Shown here one piece after another: positions 4,700 through 63,041 of a stretch of DNA of 64,000 bases. The notes below the pieces were generated by a model. The model had not been told where the DNA came from and did no database searches. It saw nothing but the letters and a program-made list of their open reading frames with translations. Both the position numbers and the translations under genes were made by a program. The DNA is from Eledone cirrhosa (taxonomy: Eukaryota). The stretch's first letter is position 1. The number at the start of each line of letters is the position of its first letter. The stretch spans positions 85,002,001-85,066,000 of the forward strand of contig OZ024746.1 in assembly GCA_964016885.1 (NCBI GenBank), given 5' to 3'.

Positions 4700-5137
4700 T
4701 ATTGTATAGAAGGAGCTTCTACAGGACTAGAACTGTTTCATTCAGATGAAATCTTCAGGAAGCTGGGTGTCATATTAAGTTCTGGTATTTATACATTTAG
4801 GTAGTGGTAAGGGAGGGGTGGTGCCTGGGGGGGGGGAGATTTTGGGGTAGGTTGGTATTTAGATACACAGGACCATAACAATTTGTTATGGTCCTGTGTA
4901 TCTAAATACCAACATACCCCCCAAATCCCCCCCCCCAGCCACCACCGCTCCCTTACCACTACCTAAATGTATAAATACCAGAACTTAATATGACACCCAG
5001 CTTCCTGAAGATTTCATCTGAATGAAACAGTTCTAGTCCTGTAGAAGCTCCTTCTATACAATAAATATATTTTACTCTGCCATGTATTGAGTACCTTACA
5101 CTACTGTGGTTATCCCCGACTCAACCCGGGACCTACG
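4700..5137 (+). mobile_element. Fold-back + tail element, family B copy 1 (Penelope-like pLTR, HHR-bearing)
   Basis: ~180-bp inverted arms (4700-4881 / 4883-5063), AATAAA, then a unique tail to 5137. Flanked by (TA)n on both sides. Homologous to 13444-13642 and 55917-56122. Confidence 0.85.
4999..5049 (+). ncRNA. Type I hammerhead ribozyme (family B)
   Basis: agcttc-CTGAAGA-t.ttc.atct.gaa.t-GAAA-cag.ttctagtc.ctg-TA|gaagct. Perfect 6-bp stem I, intact core, GUA cleavage triplet. A mirror copy lies on the minus strand in the left arm. Confidence 0.8.
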
Positions 5138-5328
5138 TATATATATATATATATATATATATATATGTGTGTGTGTATGTATATATGTATCTCTCTCTCT
5201 CAATATATATATATATATATATATATATATATATATGTGTGTGTGTGTGTGTATGTATATATGTATCTCTCTCTCTCTCAATATATATATATATATATAT
5301 ATATATATATATATATATATATATATAT

Positions 5329-5738
5329 ATTGAAAGGATAACAAGGACCATTGGTTACTCCTTCATTACATTTATTGGTAGGTGACGCGCGTTTCGCCAC
5401 TGATCAGCTCAAGGTTCGATCTGTATCGATCTTACCCGACTCAATAATCGGCAGCTCGGCGGACCCTTTAAAATGCTATAAGAAAAAAAAAAAAAAAAAA
5501 AAGGGTCCGTCGTGCTGCCGATTATTGAGTCGGGTAAGATCGATACAGATCGAACCTTGAGCTGATCAGTGGCGAAACGCGCGTCACCTACCAATAAATG
5601 TAATGAAGGAGTAACCAATCGTCCTTGTTATCCTTCAATATAATAAACTCTGTATAGCTCTATACCTCGACACTGAAGTGAACCTAAACATCGAGTACTC
5701 ACCCGGGTGAACCTGCAGTAACTCAAGTTACACTCCCT
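5329..5738 (+). mobile_element. Fold-back + tail element, family C
   Basis: ~140-bp near-perfect inverted arms (5329-5469 / 5500-5640) around an A-rich loop, then a ~100-bp tail, set in (TA)n. Contains GAAACGCGCGTC (5574-5585), the 3' half of a minimal palindromic HHR, followed by AATAAA. Confidence 0.8.
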
Positions 5739-6310
5739 ATATATATATATATATATATATACATACATACATATATATATATATATATATATATACATAT
5801 ATATATATATATATATATATATATATATATATACACATATATATATAGAGATATATAGGCATACACACACACACACACATATACTGTATATATATATATA
5901 TATATATATATATATATATATATATATATATATATACATATATATATATATATATATATATATATATATATAATTGTTCAACGCCACATTATTCTTTCAG
6001 ATGTATATTTTCTCTGCATCATAAGACGAGAAAACAAAAACCAACAAGCACCAACATGCAACCAGTATACCATATTGACATACACCAAAGGGTGTATATA
6101 TTTAAACACGTATTGAAGTGTTTTAATTGTTTGATATGTCATTTTATTCATACATGTATAGAATCAAATATGTATATGACGTGTTATTTGTATACCTATG
6201 TTTATTCTTCATAACAATCAATTTTGCTTCGTCAGTAAATCGGAAAGAATAAAAAAAAAATAAAAGCAATATCTCGCAATCAATCCGTTATTAAGATGTG
6301 GATTGGGGGA

Positions 6311-6499
6311 GGTGGGTTGGCAGTATCAGTAGAGCGTCAGACGAGATGCTTTGCAGCATAGAGTTACGGCCCTTTATGATCTGAGTTCAAATCCCGCCGA
6401 GGTTAACTTTGTCTTTCATCCTTACGGGGTCGATAAAATAAAGTACCAGTAATACACTGGGATAATTGCTGGCCCTGTGCCAAAAGTAGAAATAATTAT
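6311..6499 (+). mobile_element. tRNA-derived SINE family 1
   Basis: A-box-like TGGCAGTATCAG, B-box GAGTTCAAATCCC, body ctttcatccttacggggtcgataaaataaagtaccagt, tail ccaaaagtagaaataattat. Many homologous copies lie in the window. Confidence 0.9.
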
Positions 6500-6902
6500 A
6501 TTATATTATATATTTTAGTATATATATATATATATATATATATATATATATATATATATATCCTGGAACAGGTTATAACAACTGGAACCAGCCAGCTTGC
6601 AATTCTTCCTGAAAACGATGTATGATCTACTCCCATTCCCAGCCAATATTAGACAGTAGGTATTTAGTGACGCTGTTGATTGTCATTAATGTTAGATTAA
6701 GTTGTAGCAACATTTTCAGTCATTATCCTCACTAATGCATGAAACAACAATACAGCAGCTTTAATACAAGACAAATTAAAACAAAATTACATCTTATTGT
6801 ATCGGTAGAGGGTCGGACGCCATGCTTTCCAGCATAGTTACGTCCCTTTATGCATTAGTGATGATAATGACTGAAAATGTTGCTACAACTTAATCTAACA
6901 TT

Positions 6903-7085
6903 AATTGTTTTTACGTTAGGCACAAGGCCAGCAATTACCCAGTACATTACTGGTACTTTATTTTATCGACCCCGTAAGGATGAAAGGCAAAGTTAACCTC
7001 GGCGGGATTTGAACTCAGAATGGAAAAGGCCGTAACTCTTTGCGTCAAAGCATGGCATCCGACCCTCTACCGATACTGCCAATCC
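6903..7085 (-). mobile_element. tRNA-derived SINE family 1
   Basis: Reverse-complement match to the family 1 consensus. A head fragment on + lies at 6797-6850. Confidence 0.9.
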
Positions 7086-7840
7086 AGAAGATATAATGCC
7101 TTCATTTTATAGCCTGATCTGACTTCACAAAAAAGTCCTGATAGTTGAATTAAGAGTGTCGTAAGAAGCCAATACGAGATTGACGCATGAATGAAAGAGC
7201 CTAAAATATGAATGACTTAAGAACTTGTGTGGGATATGAAGGGGACATTGTTCGGTGCTTCCACTATATTACGGATGTTACTGATGTAACTAGTTTCCCT
7301 ATATCCCGCTCGATCTGTATATGATTTAGAAAAGACAATCGAGTAGGAGTTCATGAACTGGGGAGGGGAGGCATTATGTATTTTGTTTTAATTTTTTTTA
7401 TTAAATTGAATAGGATAATCAACGAATTATGTAATCTTACATTCAGTACAGATTGTCTCTAGTTTTAAGTTTTGATGTATTTTAATGCACACTTATTTGT
7501 GTATGGATATATTTCATTTACTTTTTTATAATGATTAAGGCTCGATTTTATTCTCTGAATTCTATCTTGAGCTGTTTTTTTAGACGAGACATGTTTGATT
7601 GTGTATCATTCATGACATCCTTTGCTTTGAATGTGTGTGTATATATATATATATATATATATATATATATATATATATATATATGTGTGTGTGTGTGTGT
7701 GTGTGTGTATATATATATATATATATATACATATATATATATATATATATACAGTATATATATATATATATATATATGTATATACACACATACACACACA
7801 CACACATATATATATATATATATATATATATATATATATA

Positions 7841-8050
7841 TAACGAAGGAAGTGTGGTAAGGAATCAGGTGGATCATAACGCACCAGAGTACTCGATACT
7901 TTGGGTAGTAGAGTGGGTAATAGGAAAAGGTTCAGGACCCCGACGGCAGACCTCAAGCCGTTTCGACGGCTATTTCTGGACACATTTCAGTCCAGAAATA
8001 GTCGTCGAAACGGCTTGAGCTCTGCCGTCGGGGTCCTGAACCTTTTCCTA
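7841..8050 (-). mobile_element. Fold-back + tail element, family A copy 1
   Basis: 80-bp tail (7841-7920) plus hairpin 7921-8050 with ~60-bp arms, next to (TA)n. Contains GAAA-cggc-ttgagctct-gccg-TC (HHR 3' half). Seven copies lie in the window. Confidence 0.9.
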
Positions 8051-61414: not shown

Positions 61415-61450
61415 GTTCGACGTGTCGGGCTTAAGCCCTTCTTCAGGAGT
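61415..61450 (-). ncRNA. Degenerate minimal HHR
   Basis: Minus strand reads actc-CTGAAGA-a.gggc.ttaa.gccc-GACA-cg-TC|gaac. GAAA and stem I are mutated. Confidence 0.5.
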
Positions 61451-61837
61451 ACCAAATAGAGACAGGATTACAATGGAAAAACAGAAAAAAAGGTCCAGTA
61501 AAGATGCAAAAAAACATATTTATATCAGTATAAATATGGTACCAGGAAAAACAGGAAGAAGTGGTCAGAAGAAGAAATGTATTGTGTGTACAATTTTTAA
61601 CACATGTTTCTGTACAATTACATAACCATCTGCATGCGCTGACTGCATTATCCGATGCTCAATTGTATGCATTACGTTTCAGTTACTGCACATCATCAGA
61701 AAGAAGTTAGCAGGGAGAAAGAAAAAATGTGTTATACTCTGAGGTGTGTACCACATTTCTGCAATAAGCATTACTTACTGCTGACAAAGCTGAAGTACAA
61801 ATAACAGAAATAGTAAGCAAAGAATTATATATATATA

Positions 61838-62045
61838 TAACAAAGGAATTGTGGTAAGGAACCAGATGGACCATAACACACCAGAGTACTCAATACTTAG
61901 GGTAGTAGAGTGGGAAATAGGAAAAAGTATGACCCCGACGGCAGAGCTCAAGCCGTTTCGACGGCTATTTCTGGACGACTATTTCAGTCCAGAAATAGCC
62001 GTCGAAACGGCTTGAGCTCTACCGTCGGGGTCATACTTTTTCCTA
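61838..62045 (-). mobile_element. Fold-back + tail element, family A copy 7
   Basis: Tail plus hairpin ~61918-62045, with (TA)n on both sides. Confidence 0.9.
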
Positions 62046-62147
62046 TATATATATATATATATATATATATATATATATATATATATATATATAGAGAGAG
62101 AGAGAGAGAGAGAGAGAGAGAGAGAGAGATAGATATATATAGAATTG

Positions 62148-62225
62148 ACTCCCTGATGAAGAAAGGAATTCTCCATGGTTTTGAACACTATTTATATCCC
62201 CTTTCAGAAACTAATTAGTTGGAGT
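62148..62225 (+). ncRNA. Type I hammerhead ribozyme, copy 1 of the tandem pair
   Basis: actcc-CTGATGA-a.gaaagg...cctttc.a-GAAA-ctaattag-TT|ggagt. Perfect stem I and palindromic ACTAATTAGT. Confidence 0.8.
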
Positions 62226-62669
62226 GAAACTTAAGTAAGTAAGTTAATTATTATAATTTTCTTATTTTACGTCTTTCATATAATTGTTCTACATTTTTGT
62301 ATTGAACCCCAAAGTTACTAAGACAAAACCTATATCTTGCTAGCATAAGTATACTTCTGTATAAATATGTTGGTAGATATACTAATTCTTTATAATTATC
62401 TCAAAATTATTTGTTGAGCAAAAATTTGCCTGAATTACTGCTATGATTCATAGTAATAGTTTGGCTACTGTCTTTTTAACACCCCACTCCTCACTGATTA
62501 ACCTCGGTGTCACGTGATTGATTCTTTTGAATTTGCCACTGACCGGGAAGGTAGTGAAATTTTCAGTGTCTTGAAATTTAGTCCGCGCTTGCTTCTTTTC
62601 CATTCACTGAATTATTTTTGTTTGAGATCCCTGTGTCCGCCTATCGCCAGCGATCTTAGCAGAGAATTG

Positions 62670-62747
62670 ACTCCCTGATGAAGAAAGGAATTCTCCATGG
62701 TTTTGAACACTATGTATATCTCCTTTCAGAAACTAATTAGTTGGAGT
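62670..62747 (+). ncRNA. Type I hammerhead ribozyme, copy 2 of the tandem pair
   Basis: Same fold as copy 1, with a perfect gaaagga / tcctttc stem II base. Confidence 0.8.
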
Positions 62748-63041
62748 GAAACTTAAGTAAGTAAGTTAATTATTATAATTTTCTTTTTTACGTCTTTCAT
62801 ATATATATATATGTATGTATGTATATATATATATATATGTATTTTTTTTCGCGAGTCAGTTCTTTTGTTGTTACGGACTCCGCGGCTGAATTACCGGCCG
62901 CTATCTTCAATTTGCAAAGCCCTTTAAACTGTATGTTATTACTCTGATGTTTTATACCTTATCGAGTGCTTGGCTGCACTTCTGAATGCATTCGTCGGCT
63001 TAGCTGCGGCTCGAGCTTCGAACATGGTGTACTTCCATTTG

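Follow-up and report, generated by a model that had tools for sequence, protein, structure and literature searches.

A bulged hairpin in the tails of Penelope-like element remnants of Eledone cirrhosa, and its pairing in the leaders of Hydra-clade relatives

Why should the tails of short insertions that look unrelated carry the same signature? In a 64,000-nt stretch of the Eledone cirrhosa genome, the whole of which is called the window here, an earlier note had pointed out a motif (ACTCT...YGAGTRC) in eight such tails. All eight sites were recovered at the coordinates cited, with ACTCC instead of ACTCT at 20246 and GAGTTC as the terminus in family F, a variant that the note had itself flagged. 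Comparison with shuffled sequence had been set beforehand as the refutation test: across the 52,155 unmasked bases a pattern of this type matches 17 times, whereas 100 dinucleotide shuffles average 1.28 matches and never exceed 4, many of the window matches being copies of families A and B and the counts thus not independent. A descriptor of the bulged hairpin discussed below finds 19 matches in the window (100 dinucleotide shuffles: mean 0.78, maximum 4). Nor are the tails simply homologous throughout, since in 56 pairwise tests the flanks of the eight families (45 nt upstream, 40 nt downstream) could not be aligned, the smallest p being 0.004 for the AT-rich upstream flanks of B and C; within-family flank controls gave z values of 7.6-31 for most, and only 1.5 for D1-D2 downstream.

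On comparative grounds, the motif is a small bulged hairpin whose stem is maintained through paired base changes. The pairing of ACTC with GAGT proposed in the note forms part of a structure of 4 + 3 bp, whose inner helix and fixed 2-nt bulge had been missed: four outer pairs (RCWC/GWGY), a 2-nt bulge on the 3' side (TT, TC or TA), at least three inner pairs and a closing RC. Across families with non-alignable flanks the inner helix covaries, and all three of its pairs form in 26 of 33 family rows (permutation mean 11.1, maximum 19), the rows having been selected by anchors only, without an inner-pair filter, and four mis-anchored rows (L403, L302, L234, L303) being retained in the 33-row counts. 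Among 18 unique inner types the three pairs form in 11 (permutation 3.2, maximum 9); these permutation tests ignore relatedness. Bulge lengths of 0, 1, 2, 3 and 4 nt occur in 0, 1, 26, 0 and 5 rows. As outer pair the window has A-T where other animals have G-C, a third outer pair is swapped from T-A to A-T in L403 and L407, and two-sided changes preserve pairing at four of the seven pairs. By single-sequence folding the hairpin is weak: minimum-free-energy folds in tail context recover both helices for F only among nine window folds, and the outer helix only for B, while in isolation both helices exceed a probability of 0.5 in 3/8 window families and 30/41 hand-chosen representatives overall. 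Nor does conservation of the 5' strand exceed that of its flank (0.94 vs 0.93) within the largest family. Pair counts tend to favour the structure both on alignment A4, with its 6 hand-picked rows, and on A5, which was fitted to the model, and serve as ancillary support only; MAFFT alignments A2 and A3 were excluded because the 5' anchor was misaligned.

The families are not unrelated, as the note had assumed, but rather diverged lineages of one kind of element. To judge from the inverted arm, the hammerhead remnant, the one-sided tail and the (TA)n target, the motif sits in 3' ends of Penelope-like elements that were truncated on the 5' side, and families A-F likely belong to the Hydra clade, a membership extrapolated from relatives, as is the twin arrangement described below. 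Insertion into (TA)n, an inverted 5'-truncated partner and a one-sided tail are traits of that clade (Craig et al. 2021, PMC8557442) and are shared by the window elements. A hammerhead near the 3' end is a further trait of the clade, with a complete core in the window in B and E. The inverted partner is detectable in 12 of the 19 motif rows examined, and in 11 of these 12 copies its arm terminates 3-6 nt before the motif, while the tail continues to (TA)n; the copies at 54908 and 32054 depart from (TA)n insertion. The tails, at 60-130 nt, are longer than the 30-40 bp described for EN+ Penelope-like elements. The spacing of 40-50 nt between motif and (TA)n given in the note holds approximately for A, B, C and F, where the next microsatellite begins 39-59 nt after the motif in 12/12 copies (6.8 % of unmasked positions have one at 35-75 nt); D1 (123 nt), E (63 nt) and the 62941 tail (72 nt) deviate from it, and no microsatellite lies within 140 nt of the motif at 54908 or in D2. 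More tightly fixed is the near end, which lies some 5 nt to the 5' side of the hairpin.

The copies carry a single hairpin, hereafter hairpin 1. In family B, copy B1 (4702..5137, + strand) consists of an inverted arm, a forward arm and a tail within (TA)n, with a Type I hammerhead motif at 4999..5049 (+; CTGAAGA core at 5005, GAAAC at 5024, stems by eye, under the Rfam gathering score) and hairpin 1 at 5074..5094 (+). B2 (13443..13642, +) has its hammerhead core at 13515 and its hairpin at 13581..13601 (+), and in sequencing reads of organism A the depth drops, with (TA)n loose ends, at 13576-13581 and 13637-13640. B3 lies on the minus strand (hairpin 55962..55982, element about 55917-56122). 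Family A contributes seven hairpins: A1 (7889..7914, -, element about 7843-8051), A2 (11507..11532, +, in a copy at 11399..11580, +, with only the hammerhead 3' half), A3 (12405..12427, +, with a 3' end damaged by a short deletion), A4 (13001..13026, -, element about 12951-13165), A5 (18513..18538, +, a tail-only fragment starting just 5' of the hairpin), A6 (41390..41415, -, one inner mismatch) and A7 (61886..61911, -, element about 61840-62043). The family C copy (5326..5737, +), its hammerhead recognisable in the 3' half only, has a hairpin at 5647..5698 (+) with a 34-nt loop insert (E 0.8), and the hairpins of D1 (12740..12761, +) and D2 (32054..32075, +) accompany inverted arms at 12611-12728 and 31916-32045. 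Element E (about 20134-20330) combines a hammerhead-like core (20141..20180, +) with a hairpin (20246..20267, +) whose first inner pair is C-G, and the F copy (45000..45575, +) has perfect inverted arms of 203 nt plus a tail, its hairpin (45446..45528, +) holding a structured loop insert of 65 nt. An isolated hairpin (54908..54931, +) has no arm, hammerhead or (TA)n nearby, and one in an orphan tail (62941..62969, +; (TA)n 72 nt on) is weak in model R1 and unlisted by R2. The inventory in the note had overlooked A1, A4, A5, A6, A7, B2, B3 and D2. The hammerhead core is complete in B (3 copies) and E, reduced to its 3' half in A, C and D, and absent from the orphan tails. A moderate candidate (10231..10283, +; G-C outer pair, (TA)n-like loop insert, E 0.72) sits in a two-tail inverted element at 10121-10319; a weak one (31729..31767, +; G-C outer pair, (TA)n 48 nt on) is listed by neither model, and another (7540..7574, +; (TA)n 65 nt on, E 0.6) may be chance.

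In the window, Rfam gave 0 matches at gathering score, 121 ORFs gave 0 relevant Pfam matches and thus no RT or EN, and no second hairpin was found. Three family-specific scans yielded no longer copy. A MITE or other TIR DNA transposon does not fit, as the arms are head-to-head copies of one end and the tail is one-sided, and neither does a non-LTR retrozyme, since no tandem period of hammerhead-bearing units stands among the 150 rows listed of 177 and the copies are dispersed. An origin from Naiad, raised by a match to Naiad_Mmer, was dropped because the match lies about 400 nt from the end of that element; moreover, B has a full hammerhead core, and the 3' ends of Naiad_Obim and Naiad_Ovul are without the motif (by eye). 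At Neptune-type ORF ends (label by eye) the hairpin is absent in 4/4, three of which stop early in (TA)n and are possibly short ends, while one is a long tail without the hairpin.

The same hairpin is found behind Hydra-clade ORFs of other animals, both by a motif-blind protein search and by a search without the 5' strand. In a metagenome scan with the 5' strand left out of the pattern, the full hairpin is present in 96/120 loci; by cluster it is full in 11/24 and near-complete in 2 more, and the remaining 11 resemble chance coding matches. Control loci hold it in 0/120 (prokaryote, looser 3' anchor), 0/4 (strictly matched) and 0/11 (viral) cases. When both strands were included, a scan of viral sequences returned 113 loci that are attributed to chance, one with a hammerhead 5' core and none with (TA)n, and no viral relative of the Hydra protein was found. 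In L238 a complete Hydra-type ORF of 707 aa lies 95 nt ahead of a hammerhead and hairpin; this motif-bearing relative (L238/P0001) shows RWK, DKT, a CxCx5C linker, no CCHH and a C-terminal EN in an ORF of about 700 aa (by eye), and its protein matches 0 Pfam families while some homologs match PF00078/PF26215. Of 40 protein-selected ends, 30 are informative (L355 reclassified by eye): 13 hold hairpin 1, 11 stop in the microsatellite before it and 6 fit neither class, two or three of the last holding a partial hairpin. Model R2, for which hits from outside the window were used, places 13 window tails at the top of its ranking. By eye, the hairpin is readable in three of the six novel consensuses in the supplement of PMC8557442, namely at the 3' ends of Hydra-2_Amil and Hydra-2_Ajap and twice at the 5' end of Hydra-1_Ajap; Hydra-1_Crog and Hydra-1_Obim give a loose match only. 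In 4 loci, Rfam gave only sub-threshold miRNA matches, away from the hairpins. An N-terminal alignment is too variable to support a locus scan.

What is new here is the second hairpin in intact Hydra leaders, 35-51 nt downstream of the first and just before the ATG. From 5' to 3' come the hammerhead, hairpin 1, a spacer of about 40 nt, hairpin 2 and the start codon; the gap between the hairpins was measured in 8 leaders, and in seven the ATG follows hairpin 2 at 13-26 nt. The 3' anchor is present shortly before the ATG in 9/11 ORF-start rows, plus L414, against a background of 1.9 % per 50 nt, while the 5' side is degenerate in hairpin 2 of L316/L346 and L238 and in hairpin 1 of L407. Inserted copies end at two sites, either about 5 nt before hairpin 1 or 30-50 nt past it. 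At metagenome loci the inverted arm ends at -11 to 0 relative to hairpin 1 in 33/37 and at -4 to -6 in 23, and of nine family-matched short ends tested, eight fall at -1 to -7; long ends lie at -4 relative to hairpin 2 in L403 and L374, and that of L358/L389 at about -5/-6 against the L359 leader (by eye). Insertion ends form two discrete classes, one 3-7 nt ahead of hairpin 1 and the other 4-6 nt ahead of hairpin 2, the far-end rule resting on three families. In the window, the (TA)n junction 40-50 nt past hairpin 1 is better explained by the second hairpin of intact relatives.

Covariation, a fixed position with respect to both insertion ends and association with autonomous Hydra-clade ORFs support the conserved cis-element of the earlier note, probably as a recognition stem. 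Each copy of the hairpin pair probably binds the RT/endonuclease at the RNA level and positions the start of copying some 5 nt to its own 5' side, so that each would fix one reverse-transcription start and the tail would be the stretch between both. We infer that transcripts would run through the pseudo-LTR into the leader of the next copy and that the element protein would cut (TA)n. A cDNA primed at the hairpin-2 site would contain hairpin 1 and give the long arm with its tail, one primed at the hairpin-1 site would give the short inverted arm, and the two truncated cDNAs would join head to head; only hairpin 1 would be visible in the window because hairpin 2 is never copied into the 3' end. 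The full scheme, in which a ~700-aa RT-endonuclease starts two cDNAs 5 nt before the tandem hairpins on two sides of a (TA)n cut, the pair acting as an RNA ruler, is offered tentatively. Without displacement, one RNA could not be copied from both sites simultaneously.

The hairpin could instead act in DNA, the cDNA folding back to copy itself and the EN or a hairpin block resolving the product about 5 nt away, which would also leave a one-sided tail. The tail has indeed been attributed to EN-mediated resolution (Craig et al. 2021, PMC8557442), that of D. virilis is needed for EN recognition according to earlier work as reported by Frangieh et al. (2024, PMC11167929), and Arkhipova (2013) argues for self-priming; in family A, subfamily variants are common to both arms of an insertion, which agrees with fold-back and equally with priming on the same RNA. 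However, this would leave unexplained why the long end falls 4-6 nt ahead of a second hairpin that the inserted DNA lacks, and both tail boundaries in Poseidon are RT starts in vitro (PMC11167929). Furthermore, G-U exceeds A-C on the sense strand by 8 to 1 (41 hand-chosen representatives, partly biased by picking), which favours the sense strand over the cDNA, and action in DNA appears quite unlikely. Only slightly more credit can be given to the idea that the hairpins are a handle by which the protein binds its RNA, serving cis preference, hammerhead activation or autoregulation of translation at the ATG close by, with the starts set otherwise, for example by AT-rich microhomology to the (TA)n primer. 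The closeness of hairpin 2 to the ATG, the frequently TA-rich bases directly 5' of the hairpins and the requirement of the Poseidon hammerhead for protein (PMC11167929) would all suit such a handle, but the offset stays near 5 nt across families despite differing local sequence and varying hairpin spacings, which points to measurement from the hairpin.

Very improbable, finally, is a motif that has no function and merely reflects common ancestry, or one that pattern selection has created. All carriers are of one element kind, many matches are copies of few families and single-sequence folding is weak; yet pairing has been kept by two-sided changes where flanks have diverged past alignment, and the hairpin recurs in protein-selected loci and twice per leader.

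Small RNA structures read by RTs include the 3' stem-loops shared by LINEs and SINEs, the R2 3' UTR, hepadnavirus epsilon and the telomerase template boundary element. Such stem-loops fix where copying starts or stops; they are single elements unrelated in sequence to the Hydra hairpin, whereas Hydra has two tandem copies, each of which would define an internal start, the second being omitted from the insertion. In Poseidon of Anolis (PAc), the RT initiates at two internal sites, which delimit the tail, and both strands are extended (Frangieh et al. 2024, PMC11167929); RNA past the second start site is required, and a start lies near a stem-loop (PMC11167929), all of which resembles the arrangement proposed here. 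Poseidon differs in belonging to another clade, its RNA template lacks the RCWC/GWGY motif (by eye), and its tail lies inside the ORF with no twin recognition element defined, whereas in Hydra leaders both hairpins precede the ATG. Relative to the Hydra families of the metagenomes, the window copies differ in their A-T outer pair and in tails of 39-59 nt past hairpin 1 instead of about 30-35 nt. The text of Craig et al. 2021 (PMC8557442) makes no mention of a hairpin, stem-loop, RNA motif or leader; no earlier description of the hairpin was found in the literature searched.

The formation of inverted pairs with an optional tail in Penelope-like elements has been a puzzle for two decades, and the sole in vitro study mapped two internal start sites but did not identify the RNA signal that specifies them. 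A covarying hairpin of 20-30 nt that occurs twice at a fixed distance from the insertion ends is a precise, mutable target with a simple prediction, and it may bear on template positioning by telomerase-like RTs. If true, the two-hairpin ruler would explain the head-to-head pair with its one-sided tail, the closest relatives of telomerase would gain a defined RNA element for positioning the template, and any upstream RNA could be directed to insert by a handle of about 90-100 nt of RNA. The hairpin also serves as an annotation marker for Hydra-type fragments without an ORF, such as model R2 detects across animals.

Run X16, from another organism and presumed to be RNA, gave one 48-nt contig over the tail, which is not taken to show expression. 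Compared with hammerhead elements in tandem arrays, the window copies stand apart as dispersed inverted pairs, and their hairpin lies in the same pseudo-LTR region as the hammerhead, 45-70 nt downstream of its core and outside the ribozyme.

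The window DNA is animal, AT-rich and dense in microsatellites; none of the 121 ORFs scanned in it encodes a reverse transcriptase (RT) or endonuclease, and it gives no match in Rfam. An earlier note had claimed that unrelated TA-embedded families carry a common tail signature, ACTCT...YGAGTRC. All the sites cited there are present, and the pattern occurs 17 times in the window against 1.28 in shuffled sequences (19 against 0.78 with a stricter structural descriptor). The spacing from motif to microsatellite also held, being 39-59 nt in 12/12 copies of families A, B, C and F for a background of 6.8%; it is not kept by D1 (12740-12761), element E (about 20134-20330) or the orphan tails at 54908 and 62941. 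Outside the motif the eight families cannot be aligned (56 tests, smallest p 0.004), and the tails are thus not homologous along their full length.

In each complete element the order is (TA)n, inverted arm, forward arm, tail, (TA)n. Family B contains a complete hammerhead motif and E its core, while A, C and D retain the 3' half alone. In PMC8557442, endonuclease-bearing Penelope-like elements are described as a truncated copy with an inverted partner and a one-sided tail; the window carriers have this same layout and are themselves of a known kind. Six copies of family A (7920-8051, 11399-11498, 12281-12395, 13035-13165, 41424-41538 and 61920-62043) share a near-identical truncation point within the hammerhead, so that none keeps the 5' core, and subfamily variants are common to both arms of one insertion. 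A stretch of about 30 nt is shared between 18552-18597 and 20067-20098, which lie 3' of the tail of copy A5 and 5' of element E, respectively.

The motif forms a bulged hairpin. It starts with RCWC, followed by at least three inner pairs that enclose a loop of 2-65 nt; after the 3' strand of these pairs come a 2-nt bulge (TT, TC or TA), GWGY and finally RC. The three inner pairs are complete in 26 of 33 family rows, compared with a permutation mean of 11.1 and maximum of 19 (20,000 permutations; rows anchored by outer sequence alone, four mis-anchored rows included, all rows treated as unrelated). Only a bulge of 2 nt works: lengths of 0, 1, 2, 3 and 4 nt give 0, 1, 26, 0 and 5 rows. For the outermost pair the window copies use A-T, where other animals have G-C, and the third outer pair is swapped in two loci from outside the window, L403 and L407. 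The structure is shown by this covariation. The window copies are thermodynamically weak, which suggests that a protein is probably needed.

Outside the window, the hairpin was first spotted by eye 3' of the hammerhead in the published Hydra-2_Amil consensus. A metagenome scan with the hammerhead core and the hairpin 3' strand alone returned at least 120 loci, from an estimated 350 or so. The pairing 5' strand is present in 96/120 of the loci listed; among controls it was found in 0/120 prokaryote loci (looser anchor), 0/4 strictly matched loci and 0/11 viral loci. These 120 loci form 24 clusters, and 94 of the loci belong to just four of them; the hairpin is full in 11 clusters and near-complete in 2, and the other 11 clusters look like chance matches. 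In one locus, L238, an intact 707-aa ORF lies 95 nt upstream, with the RWK, DKT and CxCx5C motifs ascribed to the Hydra clade. A second set of loci was chosen by protein alone from host DNA inside prokaryote bins. Ten of its 40 ORF-end rows are uninformative; of the other 30, the hairpin is present in 13, a microsatellite terminates 11 before the hairpin is reached and 6 belong to neither class, two or three of these with a partial hairpin. Neptune-type ends in the same contigs are without hairpin in 4/4 cases, though three may be short ends. A covariance model built from non-window matches, themselves collected with a model containing three window rows, places 13 window tails at the top of its list and C further down as a weak match, with F and the 62941 tail missed. 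The hairpin belongs to Hydra-clade elements, of which the window families are likely members. The animal host DNA in question (L354-L435, G001-G008) lies in several prokaryote genome bins and carries Hydra- and Neptune-type ORFs, intact or broken, nested in each other's (TA)n tracts, with 45 matches in one 12-Mb bin.

The inverted arm ends at a nearly constant distance from the hairpin: at -11 to 0 in 33/37 metagenome loci (-4 to -6 in 23), at -3 to -6 in 11/12 window copies and at -1 to -7 in 8/9 family-matched short ends. In the metagenome families the far end follows the hairpin at about 30-35 nt. A model search matched a second copy, hairpin 2, directly upstream of ORF starts. Its 3' anchor stands shortly 5' of the ATG in 9/11 ORF-start rows (background 1.9%), the other two being inversion junctions without a leader, and in one further leader, L414. 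Both hairpins are complete or near-complete in L242, L371, L374, L403, L408 and L414; L316/L346 and L407 have one of the two in degenerate form, and in L359 and L238 nothing but hairpin 2 or its 3' half is left. The two are separated by 35-51 nt, and by eye both also stand at the start of the published Hydra-1_Ajap consensus. In families for which a leader and a long end were both available, the long end falls 4 nt before hairpin 2 in L403 and L374 and, by eye, about 5-6 nt before it in L358/L389 compared with the L359 leader. The window families, we infer, also have hairpin 2. Tail-only fragments starting or ending at a hairpin boundary recur (L359, L389, L397 and the region upstream of L238; cf. 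A5 in the window), which suggests template jumps or abortive starts at hairpin sites.

For the Poseidon RT, PMC11167929 describes two internal start sites that bound the tail, extension of both target strands and a requirement for RNA past the second site. Most simply read, the Hydra hairpins would each be bound by the protein, which would fix a start about 5 nt 5' of the hairpin. The first site's cDNA would then give the short inverted arm, cDNA from the second would include hairpin 1 and give the tailed arm, and hairpin 2 would be left out of every copied 3' end. Binding and priming at the RNA level, and this order of events, are inferred, and two less likely rivals stand beside them. The hairpin might be a DNA-level resolution signal; against this, G-U outnumbers A-C on the sense strand 8 to 1 in hand-picked rows, which favours the sense strand over the cDNA. 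It might also serve binding or translation while something else sets the starts; the position of hairpin 2 near the ATG speaks for this, the nearly constant offset of the insertion ends against it.

The combination of a twin bulged hairpin and a fixed offset to both insertion ends appears to be undescribed. The literature search found no description of it, Repbase reports and subscription papers, where a prior mention is possible, being beyond its reach. The main text of PMC8557442 contains neither "hairpin" nor "stem-loop", and this hairpin is not described in the text covered of PMC4209133, bioRxiv 10.64898/2026.07.22.740005 and PMC11167929, the last of which has drawings of structures that may be relevant here; PMC3846280, PMC8969392 and, by its listing, PMC7229834 were also covered. 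The twin hairpin with its fixed end offsets opens the origin of Penelope tails to direct test.

Family B is abundant in organism A (25,647 contigs from run X1 placed), where reads and contigs show loose (TA)n ends at 13576-13581, directly before the motif, and at 13637-13640, the far end. Among the motif variants listed, changes occur in the loop and at one G, where G-U becomes an A-U pair, and a rarer variant at 13591 breaks a pair. Joints at 13575-13577 show B-related variants with longer loop inserts or short tandem duplications exactly at the short-end site.

Several other window elements deserve mention. A separate Penelope-like family at 18660-19940, which may be of Naiad or Neptune type, occurs as inverted copies and partial tandem ones. 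Its short ends are separated from its long ends by about 50 nt, and of the hammerhead core only half is present; it is without the bulged hairpin, a negative within the window. Both arms of the inverted element at 10121-10319 are long-tail-like, the right one with a candidate hairpin (10231-10283) with a G-C outer pair. The AT-rich inverted pair at 9860-10075, both arms of which end 5' of the hairpin site, resembles element E by eye, a likeness that masked BLAST did not confirm. Hammerhead-like cores without hairpin lie at 60669 (+), 61699 (-), 44833 (-), 14267 (-), 29838 (-) and 41829 (-); those at 44833 and 14267 reach (TA)n after about 50 nt, as short ends do. Copies of one SINE-like family, about 200 nt long, are dispersed at 6313-6508, 6891-7086, 17790-17965, 33900-34085, 41025-41200, 43700-44470 and 51533-52153, several of them in inverted pairs, and another dispersed repeat forms an inverted pair at 48602-49171, in which a short palindrome bears a loose resemblance to the motif. 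Minisatellites occupy 23376-24716 (42 nt, 33 copies) and 49644-51239 (29 nt, 57 copies).
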